IMG/VR virus record: IMGVR_UViG_3300049049_000183
Coordinates: 1-27,156 of that record
From: a virus
Taxonomy: Duplodnaviria > Caudoviricetes
Direction: 5' to 3' (one strand)
DNA: 27,156 nucleotides
Shown: in pieces, positions 1 through 18,118 of the stretch
Numbering within the stretch: position 1 is the first letter of the stretch
Layout of the letters: each line of letters begins with the position of its first letter
Translations under genes and position numbers: made by a program
The notes under the pieces: model-generated
Databases searched by the model: none
The model's input: the letters and a program-made list of their open reading frames with translations, nothing else
What the model was told of the DNA's origin: nothing

Positions 1-242
1 CGCAGCTGATGCGCCTGCTCGACACCTCCAGCCGTGCCGAGGGCGTGCGCATCTACATCGGCGGCGAGAGCCAGGTCGTGCCGTACGAGGAGCTGTCCAT
101 CGTGTCCGCGCCCTACGAGGTCGACGGCCAGGTGGTCGGCACGCTGGGCGTCATCGGCCCGACGCGCATGGCCTACGACCGCATGATCCAGATCGTCGAC
201 ATCACGTCGCGGATGGTCGGGCAGGCGCTTTCCCAGCGTTGA
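1..242 (+). CDS. hrcA: Heat-inducible transcription repressor HrcA, C-terminal part (5' end outside window)
   Basis: Translation contains IYIGGES...[27 protein letters not shown], the characteristic HrcA C-terminal GVIGPTRM motif; TGA at 240-242. Confidence 0.95.
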
Positions 243-275: not shown

Positions 276-314
276 GGGCCGTTAGCTCAGTTGGTCAGAG
301 CAGAGGACTCATAA
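276..314 (+). pseudogene. 5' half of host tRNA-Ile2 (anticodon CAT), truncated at the anticodon loop; prophage attachment junction
   Basis: GGGCCGT-TA-GCTC-AGTTGGTCA-GAGC-A-GAGGA-CTCATAA gives acceptor 5' strand, D arm, anticodon 5' stem and loop. The next bases (GGTCCC...) do not continue the cloverleaf and no T arm or CCA follows. C4/C5 favour Ile2 over Met. Confidence 0.9.
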
Positions 315-399
315 GGTCCCGGACAGACCGCCACGAATGGACGAAGACCCTTTACCCATGCGGGTTCTAAGGCGGCAGAGGTGCAACGTCTAAAAACTG

Positions 400-418
400 C
401 TTTCCACCAACTTTCCAC
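400..418 (+). repeat. Tandem direct repeat CTTTCCAC x2; candidate integrase arm-type binding sites
   Basis: CTTTCCAC at 400-407 and 411-418 (11-bp period), partial inverted copy GTGGAAG at 449-455, about 90 bp from the att core. Confidence 0.55.
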
Positions 419-468
419 TTTGGCCTGCGGCATATAAGTCACCGCCCGGTGGAAGGCTATCCGCGGCA

Positions 469-484
469 CTGTATGAAAATACAG
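469..484. promoter_or_regulatory. LexA (SOS) box
   Basis: CTGT-ATGAAAAT-ACAG, an exact CTGT-N8-ACAG match with AT-rich spacer in GC-rich DNA, 3 nt before ATG 488. Confidence 0.85.
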
Positions 485-487
485 TAC

Positions 488-859
488 ATGTTGGTCGACA
501 TCATCGAACTCAGGCACTGTGACCACGCCCGGGACCGCGATGCGGTGCGAGCGACGGTGCCTGTGCGGGTGACCATCGACATCGACAGGTTCTGGACGCA
601 CGAGAACCTGGACCGGCCCAAGGTCCACGCGAGCGTCCATCCGATGGTGCTCGAGCCGCTCTACGACGTGCGCATCCGATACTGGCGGCGCGTGAACATC
701 GTGTTGACCGGCCGCCAGCGGCAGGCCGTCCCTGGTCGCAAGAGCAGCGAGGCGATGTATGAGCAAACCTGGTGGTGCCGGCTCGTGTTGGACCCGACCG
801 TTCCACCCATGGCTCCCATCGCCAGGAAGCGTCTACCGGCGACCTACAATGCGTCTTGA
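488..859 (+). CDS. Hypothetical prophage protein (123 aa), probably SOS-inducible
   Basis: ORF with GC3-rich codons (MLVDIIELR...YEQTWWCRL); ATG 488 directly follows the LexA box (alternative ATG 473 lies inside the box). Confidence 0.7.
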   Translation: MLVDIIELRHCDHARDRDAVRATVPVRVTIDIDRFWTHENLDRPKVHASVHPMVLEPLYDVRIRYWRRVNIVLTGRQRQAVPGRKSSEAMYEQTWWCRLVLDPTVPPMAPIARKRLPATYNAS

Positions 860-861
860 GT

Positions 862-1154
862 GGGCCGGACGCCGTGTTGGTTGCAGGCAGCGGACTCATA
901 GCAATAGTTGTGCACCCCGTCGGAAACGGCGGGTGTGAATGGCGTCAAATTCGGTGGAACCTGACGGCTGCGATGCAGCGCAAGGCAATGCCGAGCCAAG
1001 CCCCGCGAGGGGAAGGTGTAGAGACTAGACGGCGCCCGCCTAACGCTCGAAGAGAGCCATGGTGAAGGCATAGTCCAGGGAGGTCGGAAACGACCACAAA
1101 CCGGAATCCGTCAGCGAAAGCTCATCGTGGGTTCGAACCCCACCCGGCCTACCA
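862..1154 (+). tRNA. Prophage-borne intron-containing tRNA(CAU), probably Ile2; exons 862-899 and 1105-1154, 88 nt spliced, long variable arm
   Basis: Acceptor GGGCCGG/CCGGCCT, D stem GCC/GGC with GG in loop, anticodon stem GCGGA/TCCGT, loop CTCAT^AA, V arm AGC-GAAA-GCT, T arm GTGGG-TTCGAAC-CCCAC, A73 and encoded CCA. Possible -10 TACAAT at 845-850. Confidence 0.9.
900..1104 (+). ncRNA. Group I self-splicing intron, subgroup IC3 (Azoarcus tRNA-Ile type), 205 nt, no ORF
   Basis: IGS GTG pairing with exon CAT (G.U at splice site), P2 with GAAA loop, P3 GGCGTC/GGCGCC, P4 TTCGGT/GCCGAG, P6a CCCC-GCGA-GGGG, GTGTAGAGACTAGACGG, P7 GACTA/TAGTC in AAGGCATAGTCC, P9 GGTCG-GAAA-CGACC, ends CAAACCGG (omega-G 1104) then exon AATCCG. 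Confidence 0.96.
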
Positions 1155-1164
1155 CTCACCCCCG

Positions 1165-2154
1165 CTACACCTTCTTGGTGTAGTGCTGGTCGAAGACCTG
1201 CAAGATGTTCGCATTGAAGTACGGCTTCTTCGGGCCGGCCGGGTTCTCCAGGTCCAGATAGCGAACCTTCGCGTAGCGCTCGTCGCCAAGCAATGGCTTC
1301 CGCACAGCGTGGAAGTCGTTGTTCATCTTGAAGTCGCTGTAGCGGTCGTTCAATCGCTTGCACAGCTCGTCGTAGGTCCAGGGATATCGTTCCTTGATGT
1401 CCTGTTCCCCAAGCGTCACTTTGATGGCATCGGCGTCCCTGGAGATTTGAACCTTCGACGCAGTGGCAAGGGCGCTTTTCTCCAGCTTGACCTGCAGGCG
1501 GATAGCCACGGCGTAGTCGCTGTCGCCATCGCCCACCTCTTGTGCGAGGTTCTTCAGGTGCTCGATGAGGCGAGATTCATCCGCGGAAACGACGACGGCG
1601 CCAGCCTCCTGCGCGGGGGCCACAAATGACAGCGGCAACACCAGGTTCAGGATGCCTGCGAAGTCCTTCGCGAACCAGCTCTTGGCCAGCAGGATGAAGT
1701 TTCTGACTGAAGCTGCCGCAAGCTCTTGGGTCTGTCGGGCCAGCGTCGCGCTTGCGGTGATGAAGTGAACGCTGTTGTCGCGGATTTCGACCAAAGCGTC
1801 GAGATTAGCCTTCACCTCCTTCGCCAGCTTGGTCGCGGGGGCCGCATCAAGCTTCGTGATGCAGGCACCCAATGTGATGGAGTGGGGGTTGCCGGCGCGG
1901 TTGCGCTTCAGGAACTTCCGCTCCGACTTGACACCGGCAGCAGTCAGGCGCGTCTCATACACCCGGAGGGCGGAGATGGCGTTGTTGGCATCTTTCAAAA
2001 CCTTGGCCTTGAGCAGCAATTCCCAAGCGTTCAGGGCCAAGATAGCGAAGGTCTCTTCCCTGTAGAGGAAGCTCGGCTTGTTGTAGACCTCCACCGCCGC
2101 GGTGAGCGCAGCTGCGGCTTTGTCCACGAACCTTTGATGCAGTGGCGGTCTCAT
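1165..2154 (-). CDS. DUF3644-domain protein (HEPN-like putative RNase), 329 aa, candidate defence/toxin
   Basis: N-terminal AVEVYNKPSFLYREETFAILALNAWELLLKA typical of DUF3644; RDNSVH is an Rx4H motif; ATG 2154 preceded by AGGGAGG. Confidence 0.82.
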   Translation of the reverse strand: MRPPLHQRFVDKAAAALTAAVEVYNKPSFLYREETFAILALNAWELLLKAKVLKDANNAISALRVYETRLTAAGVKSERKFLKRNRAGNPHSITLGACITKLDAAPATKLAKEVKANLDALVEIRDNSVHFITASATLARQTQELAAASVRNFILLAKSWFAKDFAGILNLVLPLSFVAPAQEAGAVVVSADESRLIEHLKNLAQEVGDGDSDYAVAIRLQVKLEKSALATASKVQISRDADAIKVTLGEQDIKERYPWTYDELCKRLNDRYSDFKMNNDFHAVRKPLLGDERYAKVRYLDLENPAGPKKPYFNANILQVFDQHYTKKV

Positions 2155-13858: not shown

Positions 13859-15244
13859 TCAGTCCTTCACTGCTTTGCGCTCAAAGCCGGCTTTCAATGC
13901 GGTGTAGTCGCAGTTCAGAGCCCTGTTTGGTGTGCCGTTGAAATACATCAACACGTAGTTGTCAGCGCCGTAGCCGAGGCCGTTGACCACGCCGCCAAAG
14001 CTGTCATGCGGATGGCGTGCGGAGGTCTGGCGCACGAAGACATCGACCACGCCGCCTGTGGGCGTGCTGTGGCGAATCTCGAAGAATCCCAGCTTGGTGT
14101 ATGCGAGGAAGGCGGTTGGCTGGTCTTCGCCCACCAGTGGGCGCACGACCGCGGACTTCTCTGGGGCGCCGACGACCATGCTCACGGCTTGCGCGCACAT
14201 GACGTCGTTCTCGGCGTCGTAATACACGCCCACGCGTGAGCGCATGGCACTGTCGCTGTCCATGACGCAGATGAAAGCCTTCTCAGCGGGGTGATACGCC
14301 AGCACACGACGCACCGAGCTTCGGTTGGCGTTCAGTGCGGCTTGGCTGACCGAGGTGTCGCCGTTGGTCACGCGCAGGTTCAGCGTCTCGCCAAGGTCCC
14401 AAAGCAGCCACTTCGCGAAGGTCAGGCTGCCCAGTCGCATCGCGCATACCTGCGCACCCTCGCCGGCGGTTGAGTCCGCGACGAAGGAACACTGCGTCTC
14501 GCTGCCCCAGTCATCAAAGAGGAAAGCGAATTCGGCCACCAGGTCGAGTTCGCCTTGCGTGTTGATGACGAACTGACCCATATCGCCATCAGGCAACATG
14601 CGCAGCACTACCAGCTTGGTCTGGCCGTCCGCTGTCTTGACCGCCTTCAGCACCAGATACAGGCAGCTCGGCTCGCCAGGCACGAACAGGGCGCTGACGA
14701 CAGCGGCGCTGCTGTATTCGGCGGAGAGGTCGTAGCCGAAGGAGAAGGACGAGATGTCGCCCAAGTTCGGGTCGTAGATGGGCTCGCCCACGCTGTGTGC
14801 GTAGCCCACCAGCGCGTTGCCGTCCCCAATCTGGTCAATAACGGTCAGCCCGGCATCGACGGCCCTCGCGCTCTCGGCAACTGCGTCGTAGTAGGCGCAG
14901 CCCTGTTCGGTGGCGTTCGTCACCTGCGTGTCCAGGAACGTGAAGCCAGCCGGTGCGGGGTGGTTGCCCTGGAGCTTGATGACGGCGCCGGATGGCAGGC
15001 CGGTGGCGGGCGAAGAAAGCTCGCCGATGGCATCAAGCACCGGCTGCAGGTCTGCGCTTGGGATGGCGGCGATAGCTGACATCAGCGTCGCCAGGTTTGC
15101 AGAGGACATGCCCGCGACGGCGTCGATGACCGCCTGCTTGTCTGCGTCTACAAGCGCGTCGATTGCCGCTTGGGCGGCCGCAACGGATTCCGTGGTTGCA
15201 AGGCCGGACAGGTTCGGGTTGATGTAGGTTGAGAGCAGGGACAT
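13859..15244 (-). CDS. Hypothetical 461-aa acidic protein, possible virion appendage
   Basis: Start overlaps upstream stop (TGATG); helical Ala-rich N-terminus, then beta-rich body; inside the structural operon. Confidence 0.75.
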   Translation of the reverse strand: MSLLSTYINPNLSGLATTESVAAAQAAIDALVDADKQAVIDAVAGMSSANLATLMSAIAAIPSADLQPVLDAIGELSSPATGLPSGAVIKLQGNHPAPAGFTFLDTQVTNATEQGCAYYDAVAESARAVDAGLTVIDQIGDGNALVGYAHSVGEPIYDPNLGDISSFSFGYDLSAEYSSAAVVSALFVPGEPSCLYLVLKAVKTADGQTKLVVLRMLPDGDMGQFVINTQGELDLVAEFAFLFDDWGSETQCSFVADSTAGEGAQVCAMRLGSLTFAKWLLWDLGETLNLRVTNGDTSVSQAALNANRSSVRRVLAYHPAEKAFICVMDSDSAMRSRVGVYYDAENDVMCAQAVSMVVGAPEKSAVVRPLVGEDQPTAFLAYTKLGFFEIRHSTPTGGVVDVFVRQTSARHPHDSFGGVVNGLGYGADNYVLMYFNGTPNRALNCDYTALKAGFERKAVKD

Positions 15245-16173
15245 CAGACGAGCCTCCAGCCAAGGGTGGAAACGAAGCGCAGCGTGATGCACACGCGGCG
15301 GTCGAGAGTGAGGTCCTCAACAACGCCGAGCAGCGGGTGGCCGCCGCAGAGGACGATGGGTGGGATGGTCGTGGCAACGTCCAGGGTCACCGTGGCCCCA
15401 TCAGTGGGGTCGGCCGGCAGCGCGACCTGCGTCGCGTCCGTCGTGCTGGCCAGGACGTAGTAGCCGCGGTCCACTGTGGTGACGGAGGCACCTGTGACGA
15501 TGACTGGGGTAGGAGAGACAGCAGCTGCCCCAACGGTGGCTGCTGCCGCCGCGGCAGCAGCGGCAGATGCGGCGGCTTGTGCGGCAGCTGTGGCGGACGC
15601 GAGGGCGTCGAGCTGTATTTGTGGGTTCACATCGTCTCCTTCGGAGCAGGTGTTTGGGTCGGCCCACAGTTCGGTGACGACGTTCACGGCCAGCGTTTCA
15701 GCCTCCGGGTACCAAGTGGGGTGGATTTCGGTGGGGTCGAAGTACTCGAAGGTCTCGATGTCGATGGTCATGTGCAGACCGGCGATGTGGAACTCGCCGT
15801 CTGCACTGACAGTGGAGTGCGTGGTGACGTTCGCGACCTGCTGACACATCTCAATGAGGGCCGGCTCACCAAGCACCGCGTTCTCGACACGTGCGCCAAG
15901 GTCCTCGAGGGCGTCCTGTGCGTCTTCGGCGGTGCGCGCCAACACGCGCGCGATGAGCTCGAGCGAGACCGTCGTTGTGAAGTTCGGCAGCGTCTTGGCG
16001 TTCGAGCTCTTGCGGTCAGGGCCGCAGCGCAGCTTGACCTGAGGGAAGTCGGTGGGCTGCGGACTTTCCGTGGCCTGCGAGTCCCAGACGCCAGGCGACT
16101 CAACGAGAACGCCCTCGAGCCGCTGGAGGGCGGCCAAGGCAAGTTCACGAAGTTTGCGACGTGCGAGCATCAA
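15244..16173 (-). CDS. Tail terminator/completion-like protein fused through a poly-Ala linker to a fibre-adaptor-like domain
   Basis: Position after head-tail joining gene; N-domain PNFTTTVSLE..D.LE.L...VE.A; C-domain LPADP.DG.TV...EDLTLD..FV..LGWRLV. Confidence 0.65.
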   Translation of the reverse strand: MMLARRKLRELALAALQRLEGVLVESPGVWDSQATESPQPTDFPQVKLRCGPDRKSSNAKTLPNFTTTVSLELIARVLARTAEDAQDALEDLGARVENAVLGEPALIEMCQQVANVTTHSTVSADGEFHIAGLHMTIDIETFEYFDPTEIHPTWYPEAETLAVNVVTELWADPNTCSEGDDVNPQIQLDALASATAAAQAAASAAAAAAAAATVGAAAVSPTPVIVTGASVTTVDRGYYVLASTTDATQVALPADPTDGATVTLDVATTIPPIVLCGGHPLLGVVEDLTLDRRVCITLRFVSTLGWRLV

Positions 16174-16523
16174 GAGATTCGATTCAGTTCGATACGGGCA
16201 TGCCCGTGGCCGTCGGGCTTGCCGGCTTTGACCGTGTAGCGAACGCCTGTGCTTACGCGGACGAGTTCGTCCTTTTGGGCCGCCTCTGGCTTAAACCCTG
16301 CGGGGAATTCCGACAGCCGAACGCCGCAGACCGGCCGGACCGAAATCACACCGGGGTCGCCGTTGCCGTCGAGTGCCACGTTGGTGTAGGCGGTGTCGAA
16401 CACGCCAGTGATATCGAACGGGGACCCGCTGCGCGGGTAGTACGTGATGCGCTCGCCAAAGACCGCGTTGAGCGGTGCAAGAACGAGGGCGTCCCAGTCA
16501 ATGGCCATTTCGTTGCGCTCCAT
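16170..16523 (-). CDS. Head-tail joining (head closure) protein
   Basis: IDWD..VL.P...VFGE..Y.P..G..F.ITGVFD..PDGHG..L motif; start 16523 or 16508. Confidence 0.8.
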   Translation of the reverse strand: MERNEMAIDWDALVLAPLNAVFGERITYYPRSGSPFDITGVFDTAYTNVALDGNGDPGVISVRPVCGVRLSEFPAGFKPEAAQKDELVRVSTGVRYTVKAGKPDGHGHARIELNRIS

Positions 16524-16577
16524 AGGGGAGCGACGGAATGCCGCTCTTGCAACGTATAGGCAAGGGTCGCTAGGGGC

Positions 16578-16606
16578 TTGCCGCGCGAAACCCCGCCCTG
16601 TAGATT
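16578..16606 (+). promoter_or_regulatory. sigma70-like promoter of the moron
   Basis: TTGCCG (16578-16583), 17 bp, TAGATT (16601-16606); GGGAGG RBS at 16620-16625. Confidence 0.6.
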
Positions 16607-16631
16607 ACAAAAGCTAACAGGGAGGCTTAGG

Positions 16632-16985
16632 ATGAAGAAACTTGCGCTCGTGGGCATGGCTACGTCCCTGCTGGGCATCGCTTCGGTGCCTGCCTCTGCG
16701 GCAACTAATGACTGCCAAGCTAAGGTGACCTTCGTGTCGGCAGTGCCGAAGGACGGCCAAGTGACCGTCACGTTCGATATCAAGACGTCGTGCCCTGGAA
16801 GCACTGGTCGGTTTGATTACACGTATCAGACCGCTCAGCGTGCCGGCGTCTCTACGACGAGGACGCTGCCATCCTGGAACGCAGCGAACAAGCAGAACTT
16901 CCAATGGACCGACGTGTTCAGCGAGCCTTCGACGGTGACCAACGTCAAGGTTGTGCCGGGCTCCATCCAGTCTTCCAAGTCATGA
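16632..16985 (+). CDS. Moron gene 1: small exported beta-rich protein (117 aa)
   Basis: Sec signal peptide MKKLALVGMATSLLGIASVPASA; two Cys; strong RBS; opposite strand to the late operon. Confidence 0.82.
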   Translation: MKKLALVGMATSLLGIASVPASAATNDCQAKVTFVSAVPKDGQVTVTFDIKTSCPGSTGRFDYTYQTAQRAGVSTTRTLPSWNAANKQNFQWTDVFSEPSTVTNVKVVPGSIQSSKS

Positions 16986-18118
16986 TGGCCGCTATGAAAC
17001 TCCGCGTTGCGCTGACTTCCAGTCTGTTGGCAGTTGCCTCAGGGTTGTCATACGGCGATGAATGCACTGAACTGGGCATCGCCGTGGGGCAGGAAATCGT
17101 TCGGTCGTCAGCAGCTCTGGACAAAGAGTCGCTCGACAAGTACGACTTCTGTAAATACGACTACAGCAAGGCAAGCAGCGCCGAGAAGGCAAGCATTGAG
17201 GCCAGCTACGTGAAGGTGGCGTCCGGCAGTGCAAGCAAGGAATCGAAGGCCATTCAGGAGCGGCAGTCGGAATTGTGCGAGGGACGTTTCGGCTATGCCA
17301 GGTCGATTGCTCTCAACACGAACGAATCGCGCACTTGGTCGCCCATGGGCAAGGAAGTCCTGGATGCCTGCTACGCGCAAGAGACGGTGCGCATCGTCGC
17401 TGCAACGTATTCGGCACGGCAAGTCCGCTTCACAGTGAGGAACGGAACCACCGAGAAGGCGCCAATCCGGGACTACAAGGTGAGCCCTAGGGCCATGGTG
17501 GACAACTGTGACATCGTCAACTACGAGACAAGCTTGCTGGGCACTGGCAAATACATCGCGCCCCACAAATCGGTGGAAGTCATCTGTGGACTGACGACGC
17601 GGACGAAGCCAGGAGCGGACCCTTCGCAACTCACGTATGGCGGCGGGTTTATCGCGCTGGATGCGCCGGGAACGACGTTGAAGAGCCTTCCGGTGCCCGA
17701 AGTGACAGAGCCGACACTCAGCCAGGCGCAGCGCGTCCTTGCAAGCAAGCTAGCCTCGGCGGAGGAAGCCATCAAATCGCTGCGCGTCGAATTGAAGGCG
17801 GCCACCGACAGGTCGACACAGGCAGAAGAATTGACAGCGAAGGTGCGCGCTGCAGCGGCGGAGGCGCAGACGTCATCAATCCAGCGTCTTCATGTGGTGA
17901 CTTTGGGAATTCCCAAGGTTGTCCCCAACACCCCGAGGTTTCATGCCCTTGAAGACAACGGCGTCGCATGTGTTCCCAATTGGGGGCCGGCAGCAAACGA
18001 ATTTGCAGCGAAGGTATGCGGCGCCGGAAACTACGCCATGGATTCGATGGTTTCAGTCAACGGCGGCCCCTGCGGGCAAACGGTCGCGGCATTCATGTGC
18101 AAGGCACCGATTCCCTGA
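16982..18118 (+). CDS. Moron gene 2: exported Cys-rich protein with coiled-coil segment (about 375 aa)
   Basis: ATGA overlap with gene 1 (alternative start 16994); signal-like MKLRVALTSSLLAVASGLSYG; several Cys; heptad-like LASKLASAEEAIKSLRVELKA. Confidence 0.8.
   Translation: MMAAMKLRVALTSSLLAVASGLSYGDECTELGIAVGQEIVRSSAALDKESLDKYDFCKYDYSKASSAEKASIEASYVKVASGSASKESKAIQERQSELCEGRFGYARSIALNTNESRTWSPMGKEVLDACYAQETVRIVAATYSARQVRFTVRNGTTEKAPIRDYKVSPRAMVDNCDIVNYETSLLGTGKYIAPHKSVEVICGLTTRTKPGADPSQLTYGGGFIALDAPGTTLKSLPVPEVTEPTLSQAQRVLASKLASAEEAIKSLRVELKAATDRSTQAEELTAKVRAAAAEAQTSSIQRLHVVTLGIPKVVPNTPRFHALEDNGVACVPNWGPAANEFAAKVCGAGNYAMDSMVSVNGGPCGQTVAAFMCKAPIP

Follow-up and report, generated by a model that had tools for sequence, protein, structure and literature searches.

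When a prophage interrupts the host tRNA gene that serves AUA codons, how does the lysogen go on reading them? The left end of a 27,156-nucleotide stretch of viral DNA, an entire virus record (the window, meaning the whole stretch that was analysed) raises this question. A prophage appears to sit in the anticodon loop of an hrcA-linked tRNA-Ile2 gene, and it carries an intron-split CAU tRNA of its own that, after predicted splicing, would take the place of the AUA-reading tRNA, a reading that we consider very probable.

The broken host gene and the ends of the element

The left end of the window has the following features.

1 to 242, plus strand: 3' end of host hrcA, recognized by protein-level identity
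254 to 259, plus strand: -10-like hexamer TAGAAT ahead of the host tRNA, a consensus match only (1 site against 0.1 expected)
276 to 314, plus strand: orphan 5' half of the host tRNA-Ile2(CAU), positions 1-38, the same 5' half as in relatives' intact hrcA-linked genes
308 to 314, plus strand: 7-bp att core coinciding with the anticodon loop CTCATAA, the putative attL crossover, placed where identity with intact genes ends
315 to 460, no strand assigned: att arm on the phage side, its right edge placed approximately, in which an 8-bp sequence is directly repeated (400-407 and 411-418)

Over 78 amino acids the window's HrcA is 82% identical to the Pfam HrcA protein of a Hydrogenophaga MAG, and it is 88-90% identical to HrcA from other genomes of that family. 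The host CAU tRNA that follows stops after its anticodon loop, as the first-pass annotation had claimed. Relatives' intact hrcA-linked genes share the identical 5' half and then read TCCTTTGG; in the window the 3' half is absent after position 314, where non-tRNA sequence stands instead, and no orphan 3' half occurs anywhere in its 27,156 nt. The non-tRNA sequence rules out, at this junction, a canonical tRNA-targeting prophage whose 3' duplication restores the gene. The CTCATAA 7-mer is also the start of the orphan 3' halves in relatives, where cores span 7-10 bp, and comparable paired repeats lie some 80-110 bp from the core in related elements; by this resemblance, the 8-bp repeats in the window's arm are likely integrase arm sites.

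Contigs of four soil DNA runs, two of which are possibly the record's source, span the 314/315 junction with zero mismatches and 27-30 host-side letters, just short of the 31 that our bridging rule sets. Loose ends at 314 in the DNA runs read on as an intact tRNA, the configuration of an empty site. Contig depth, which is not the same as share of cells, is lower over the prophage than over the host flank in all four runs, and no attP joint was present in their assemblies. Of 14 genomes in the genus of G241, ten carry the gene uninterrupted at hrcA or close to it; of the other four, two have a broken gene and two a displaced, intron-bearing one.

In the mechanism that we propose, a tyrosine integrase would recombine at the 7-bp loop core and destroy the host gene, so that neither junction would rebuild it. 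Related elements at the same site have PF00589 tyrosine integrases alongside. Searches returned no close relative of this prophage that includes the far end, and far ends were inspected in these related elements. Eleven genomes with a broken half were searched genome-wide (G001-G005, G018, G042, G090, G103, G125 and G237). In ten of them there is an orphan 3' half that no 5' half precedes; in G002 the search found none. No far end inspected holds a convincingly rebuilt gene; a weak ARAGORN call of 71 nt at one G042 far-end half was judged spurious, having two acceptor mismatches and no proper D arm. Nine of the eleven genomes yielded no convincing uninterrupted Ile2-type gene, and the other two, G001 and G018, have an intronless replacement. 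In G090, assembled as a single 4.2-Mb contig, the intron-split tRNA of a 69-kb trb-type element is the only complete Ile2 gene found.

The first-pass annotation had proposed that the phage complements the gene instead of repairing it. At attL the gene is indeed not rebuilt, and the related elements support complementation well, although in one genome, G408, an intron-bearing copy adjoins an intact host gene, so that a spare copy does not always mean dependence. Were the host to keep an intact tRNA-Ile2, or the far junction to rebuild one with a phage 5' half, the phage tRNA would be dispensable. The record ends before the prophage's far end and the host genome is unseen, which leaves room for such a gene, and the extra copy in G408 would fit; against this stand the inspected far ends of relatives and the nine genomes lacking a second uninterrupted copy, and we regard dispensability as unlikely.

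Under complementation, the host would have no other copy of tRNA-Ile2 and the replacement tRNA likely keeps the lysogen alive. Dependence on the spare gene would last only as long as integration, and precise excision would restore the host gene. The earlier proposal that the prophage's cargo is protected from deletion is not supported: since precise excision would rebuild the host gene, only the spare tRNA would be locked in, and only while the element is integrated. Intron-bearing genes are, in addition, found without any visible att remnant.

The probable replacement tRNA and its neighbors

The remainder of the window is laid out as follows.

473 to 859, plus strand: 128-aa ORF with no assigned function and two homologues at 73-76% identity
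845 to 850, plus strand: -10-like hexamer TACAAT, 11 nt before the phage tRNA, absent from promoter-scan calls
862 to 899, plus strand: 5' exon of the replacement tRNA(CAU), ending at U36, with an unusual A8/U14 and 38/38 identity to the pHG1 intronless gene
900 to 1104, plus strand: ORF-less group I intron of 205 nt, similar to that of Azoarcus and of class Ile2.5Ug, assigned from Rfam Intron_gpI, core elements and covariation
1105 to 1154, plus strand: 3' exon with a long variable arm (3-bp stem, covarying among relatives), T arm and encoded CCA
1165 to 2154, minus strand: candidate defence gene, DUF3644 and PDC-S19 by PADLOC, in convergent orientation to the tRNA (E 9e-136)
2495 to 27043, minus strand: genes for tail, head, portal and terminase proteins; the record stops short of the integrase and the far att site

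Inspection of this region bears out the report of a second complete CAU tRNA inside the element, split into two exons by the intron. Joined in silico, the exons give an 88-nt tRNA(CAU) that ARAGORN accepts at default settings, with A8/U14, a G13.A22 pairing and a long variable arm that had been missing from the first-pass annotation. Among the junctions tested, a CAU loop of 7 nt arises only from those that yield the 88-nt product, and 899|1105 alone has U before the intron and G at its end; the intronless pHG1 allele, through its identical 5' exon, backs the same junction at U36|A37. Neither ARAGORN nor Rfam returned anything in whole-window scans at default and gathering settings, respectively, and ARAGORN with introns allowed joined the wrong exons.

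The sequence that the first-pass annotation called very different belongs to a gene of Burkholderiaceae type, 77-79/88 identical to intronless relatives. The spliced tRNA matches an intronless gene on the Cupriavidus necator H16 megaplasmid pHG1 (NC_005241.1) at 79 of 88 positions, and 10 Cupriavidus plasmid records match its 5' exon. The same intronless gene occurs in five viral records, in two of them (L338 and L341) directly behind rpoD. On the chromosome of G651 a long-arm gene (77/88 identical) follows dnaG-rpoD with no integrase nearby; ileX of E. coli likewise sits behind rpoD. A CAU search of G651 gave 34 pattern matches, mostly chance, and the long-arm gene is the only CAU gene beyond four initiator-type and one elongator-Met-type matches. 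In all, 16 complete relatives were found (the 10 plasmid records, the five viral records and G651), with no intron where inspected (nine full-length).

Because of these matches to Cupriavidus plasmid and rpoD-linked chromosomal genes, the replacement tRNA is most likely, judging from sequence, a Burkholderiaceae-type gene with Ile2 identity. A Burkholderia/Cupriavidus-type host is the likely source from which its body was captured, and the long-arm tRNA likely gained its intron within this lineage, from the host family's pool. The long-arm 5' exon was present in 1 of 33 genomes of the family and 0 of 191 of the order sampled, so the gene is not shown to be widespread. A search of one metagenome for a long-arm intron tRNA returned three chance matches only, BLAST of the whole 862-1154 gene against phages and plasmids gave partial matches only, and our literature search found no publication on long-arm tRNA-Ile2.

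The acceptor pairs C4-G69 and C5-G68 and A73, which are TilS and IleRS determinants, are all present, and the 3-bp stem of the variable arm covaries, its sequence changing while the pairs are retained. TilS and IleRS would accept the 88-nt long-arm tRNA, and the product would read AUA. The tRNA could instead be an elongator Met, be mischarged through its variable arm, or be inactive: the arm is class II-like, A8/U14 is non-canonical, long-arm tRNA-Lys genes in large phages have a similar 3' half, and charging with Ile is a prediction. However, a near-identical gene at the rpoD-linked locus is G651's only Ile2 candidate, the gene is conserved on the 10 Cupriavidus plasmid records, and the arm varies in sequence with its pairs kept, unlike a fixed synthetase determinant. 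We consider a non-Ile2 identity quite improbable.

A second divergent, intronless CAU lineage with A8 (L274 in G018, L366 in G409, and L290) has the acceptor and T arms of the window's tRNA. Large phages (L155-L160 and L337) encode tRNAs that have long variable arms, anticodons for Lys, Asn and Trp, and 3' halves like that of the window's tRNA; the copy in DSS3P8 is unannotated. The 3' half of the long-arm CAU tRNA also lies in attP sites of L292 and L297: a complete T7-like phage that encodes an integrase, and a Paraburkholderia element of 27.6 kb that is recorded as a plasmid.

The element itself is a tailed prophage combining lambda-type head genes with Mu-type tail genes. Between tail sheath and capsid (13862-18118), several long ORFs (13859-15292 and 16904-18118) have no Pfam, PHROG or PADLOC match, and profile searches found no family match for the product of the 473-859 ORF. 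AUA accounts for 3 of 6,256 codons across 19 window genes; the phage proteins therefore do not need this tRNA, and codon supplementation for phage growth was rejected on that count. The DUF3644/PDC-S19 gene is free of AUA codons, and 10 nt separate its end from the tRNA's CCA; its protein contains an R-x4-H motif, which is associated with HEPN nucleases. This adjacency, the PADLOC match and the motif would suit a tRNA that serves as antidote to a tRNA-cleaving defence nuclease, possibly the DUF3644/PDC-S19 protein itself. Yet the mature anticodon loop is the same as the host's, the neighbors of replacement tRNAs differ between elements, and the broken host gene already accounts for the tRNA. 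We think an antidote role highly improbable, and the idea that DUF3644 and the tRNA form a toxin-antidote pair found no support.

The intron and the census of broken genes

Positions 900-1104 match Rfam Intron_gpI at E 1.2e-9, although the 43.9 bits fall short of the gathering score, which is 50. The intron can form P1, with U899.G910, as well as P3, P4, P6, P7, P8 and P9, and ends in G1104. The P3/P4/P6/P7/P8 core with its G-binding pair, U-1 in the U.G pair of P1, the terminal G and the insertion after anticodon U36 place it in class Ile2.5Ug (IC3). In an alignment of the window with 21 related introns, 94.8% of 902 cells are paired, compared with 25-43% in slid controls, and both sides change at 18 of 41 pairs; the structure was drawn from the window sequence and hence favors the window. 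The nearest intron, 85% identical, occupies a native host locus (G051). These features predict self-splicing at U36|A37, and the ribozyme would release the 88-nt tRNA. Four RNA-library assemblies yielded no spliced joint. They cover the gene only in pieces (contigs 597-840, 704-842, 871-1043, 927-1112 and 1150-1320), from which neither splicing nor transcription is evident, and the 871-1043 contig carries an unspliced 5' junction.

An Azoarcus-type intron also splits the tRNA-Ile2 of an AT-rich phage record (L001:385-660, minus strand); no broken host half is visible there, which makes it a case of a phage tRNA intron without an att context. Run X3 contains a variant with 93 other letters at window 781-856 and a single intron change (989), and therefore a related element carrying the same tRNA.

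A census of 401 genomes in the family of G001 shows how often such arrangements occur. At least 19 of the 401 have a broken host 5' half: seven from a first scan, the seed G001 included, ten from further scanning, and two met incidentally (G049 and G254). The census largely misses halves that run on as TCC, and one of the 19 lies at a contig end. The replacement could be resolved in 18 cases, and all 18 differ from the host target at the DNA level. An intron sets 13 of them apart, 12 of these keeping the host anticodon stem and one having a changed stem; the other five are intronless and differ by a changed stem. An uninterrupted replacement with the host stem was found in none of the 18. A scan of 4 of the 64 parts of a larger collection, in which 105 of more than 120 matches were skipped as intact-like (intact Verrucomicrobia-type genes), gave at least 12 betaproteobacterial-type halves, with an intron in seven of the eight whose replacement is in view.

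Intron-type 3' junctions are present in 43 of the 401 genomes (46 pattern hits, less G167, G203 and G255, which did not fit the splice pattern). Kinship ignored, introns occur in 13 of the 18 replacement genomes and 30 of the 382 others (p 2e-10), and the host stem is kept in 12 of 13 intron-bearing but 0 of 5 intronless copies (p 7e-4). The introns of the replacements belong to three lineages, at two loop positions and in several element types; members of the two lineages other than the window's matched Intron_gpI in 5 of 5 tested, three above gathering. In G005 a second insertion has cut the spare itself, an intronless and host-like copy, and the last copy in the chain bears an intron.

One explanation of this pattern is that the intron splits the att core at the DNA level while splicing restores the loop in RNA, so that an intron would plausibly shield the spare gene from the integrase. 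We put the chances at about even that the intron persists partly through this splitting of the core. The wider proposal, that introns of replacement tRNAs are a self-avoidance device against the element's own or a rival integrase and that cut-and-replace elements are a main vehicle spreading tRNA group I introns, we advance tentatively, as somewhat more likely to be wrong than right. Counting against a shielding role are the native introns (at the native hrcA position in 15 of the 43 intron-positive genomes), the changed stems that are also native in five genomes, G163, in which a gene with the window's own stem is broken, and G408.

Alternatively, complementation holds and the intron is a selfish passenger that arrived by homing or reverse splicing and gives no shielding, its excess among replacements going back to a few founder elements. 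The native introns agree with this, as does the intron tree, where they intermingle with those of the elements and supported branches force at least three changes. Related elements are, moreover, not independent, bacterial tRNA group I introns are catalogued in the anticodon loop anyway, and the window gene's stem is already changed, so that its intron may be redundant here. Against a passenger stand both enrichments, uncorrected for kinship though they are, the spread over several lineages, sites and element types, and the twice-cut chain of G005. We give the passenger explanation a little under an even chance.

Further arrangements came to light. In Polynucleobacter sinensis (L045:3750-4500) a host half and arm are followed by a second broken, intronless half, a near-identical arm and an intron-bearing tRNA, a nested chain. 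In G231 and G238 (L244-L247), elements arranged in tandem bring together two or three Ile2 genes with introns, spaced 16-32 kb apart; those of G231 are of different intron lineages. In G217 (L146) an intron-bearing Ile2 gene is broken within its intron by foreign DNA, with the 3' part on another contig. A record titled Akkermansia muciniphila (L040) has a betaproteobacterial-type hrcA locus, and its label looks wrong.

Comparison with known systems

The idea of complementation is not new: it matches tRNA-dependent lysogeny as published by Guerrero-Bustamante and Hatfull (2024, mBio; PMC10865867), whose available text includes the Gordonia phages OneUp and Mollymur at tRNA-Ile2-CAT, and PMC12429752, in the part available, mentions such compensation for rhizobial prophages. 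As in that system, attB, judged from attL, overlaps a host tRNA gene with a short common core (~10 bp), and the replacement has the CAU anticodon, an Ile2-type acceptor and 77/88 identity to G651's only Ile2 candidate. Here, by contrast with what the available text of PMC10865867 describes, the host is betaproteobacterial, the tRNA combines a long variable arm with a group I intron, and among the relatives are, besides phages, trb-type conjugative elements and small islands; in that text the word 'intron' appears only in a reference. tRNA-dependent lysogeny would thereby reach beyond Actinobacteria into Betaproteobacteria, with a broken Ile2 gene in at least 19 of the 401 genomes sampled there, in an arrangement that standard tRNA and island finders miss. 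The long-arm tRNA(CAU) genes of Cupriavidus plasmids and the rpoD locus share length, D-arm oddities and 77-79/88 nt with the window's tRNA, but they are intronless where inspected, and the prophages at those genes either leave them intact or carry a duplicate of the 3' half, unlike in the window.

The class of the intron is classical and already known. Ile2.5Ug is one of four classical classes in the Williams 2020 preprint, which, as far as its available text goes, catalogues bacterial tRNA group I introns in the anticodon loop and leaves phage or island carriage unmentioned in the main text. Like the Azoarcus pre-tRNA-Ile intron, also 205 nt long according to the accessible part of PMC13168695, and others of its type, the window's intron is 205 nt and ORF-less, lies in a tRNA-Ile(CAU) anticodon loop, and has U-1 and a terminal G, a likeness of features as opposed to a direct alignment to Azoarcus sequence; it differs in residing on a prophage and in a long-arm tRNA. 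In the portions available, a 2014 review places phage group I introns all in protein genes (PMC3984707), and PMC11915505 is about tmRNA introns. A literature search of sources other than subscription journals found no publication on intron-bearing replacement tRNAs. What is new is the intron-bearing replacement tRNA in tRNA-dependent lysogeny, together with the census pattern in which 18 of 18 replacements differ from the host target.

That introns or splits block integration at tRNA genes was hypothesized by Randau and Soll (2008, as cited in PMC4033280 and PMC3293823). The accessible text of PMC3293823 speaks of 'no direct evidence' for the idea, and that of Sugahara (2012) notes that an integration-blocking intron could benefit the element itself. 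The likeness to our case is that an intron at the attachment site would prevent recombination. The introns of that hypothesis, as the available sources present it, are archaeal and protein-spliced, whereas those described here are ribozyme introns in element-borne bacterial tRNAs, and their pattern can be counted. The system lends itself to testing directly why bacterial tRNA genes retain self-splicing introns. If shielding is real, phages and conjugative elements would be spreading tRNA group I introns into bacterial chromosomes, and the census would constitute the first countable bacterial support for the Randau-Soll idea.
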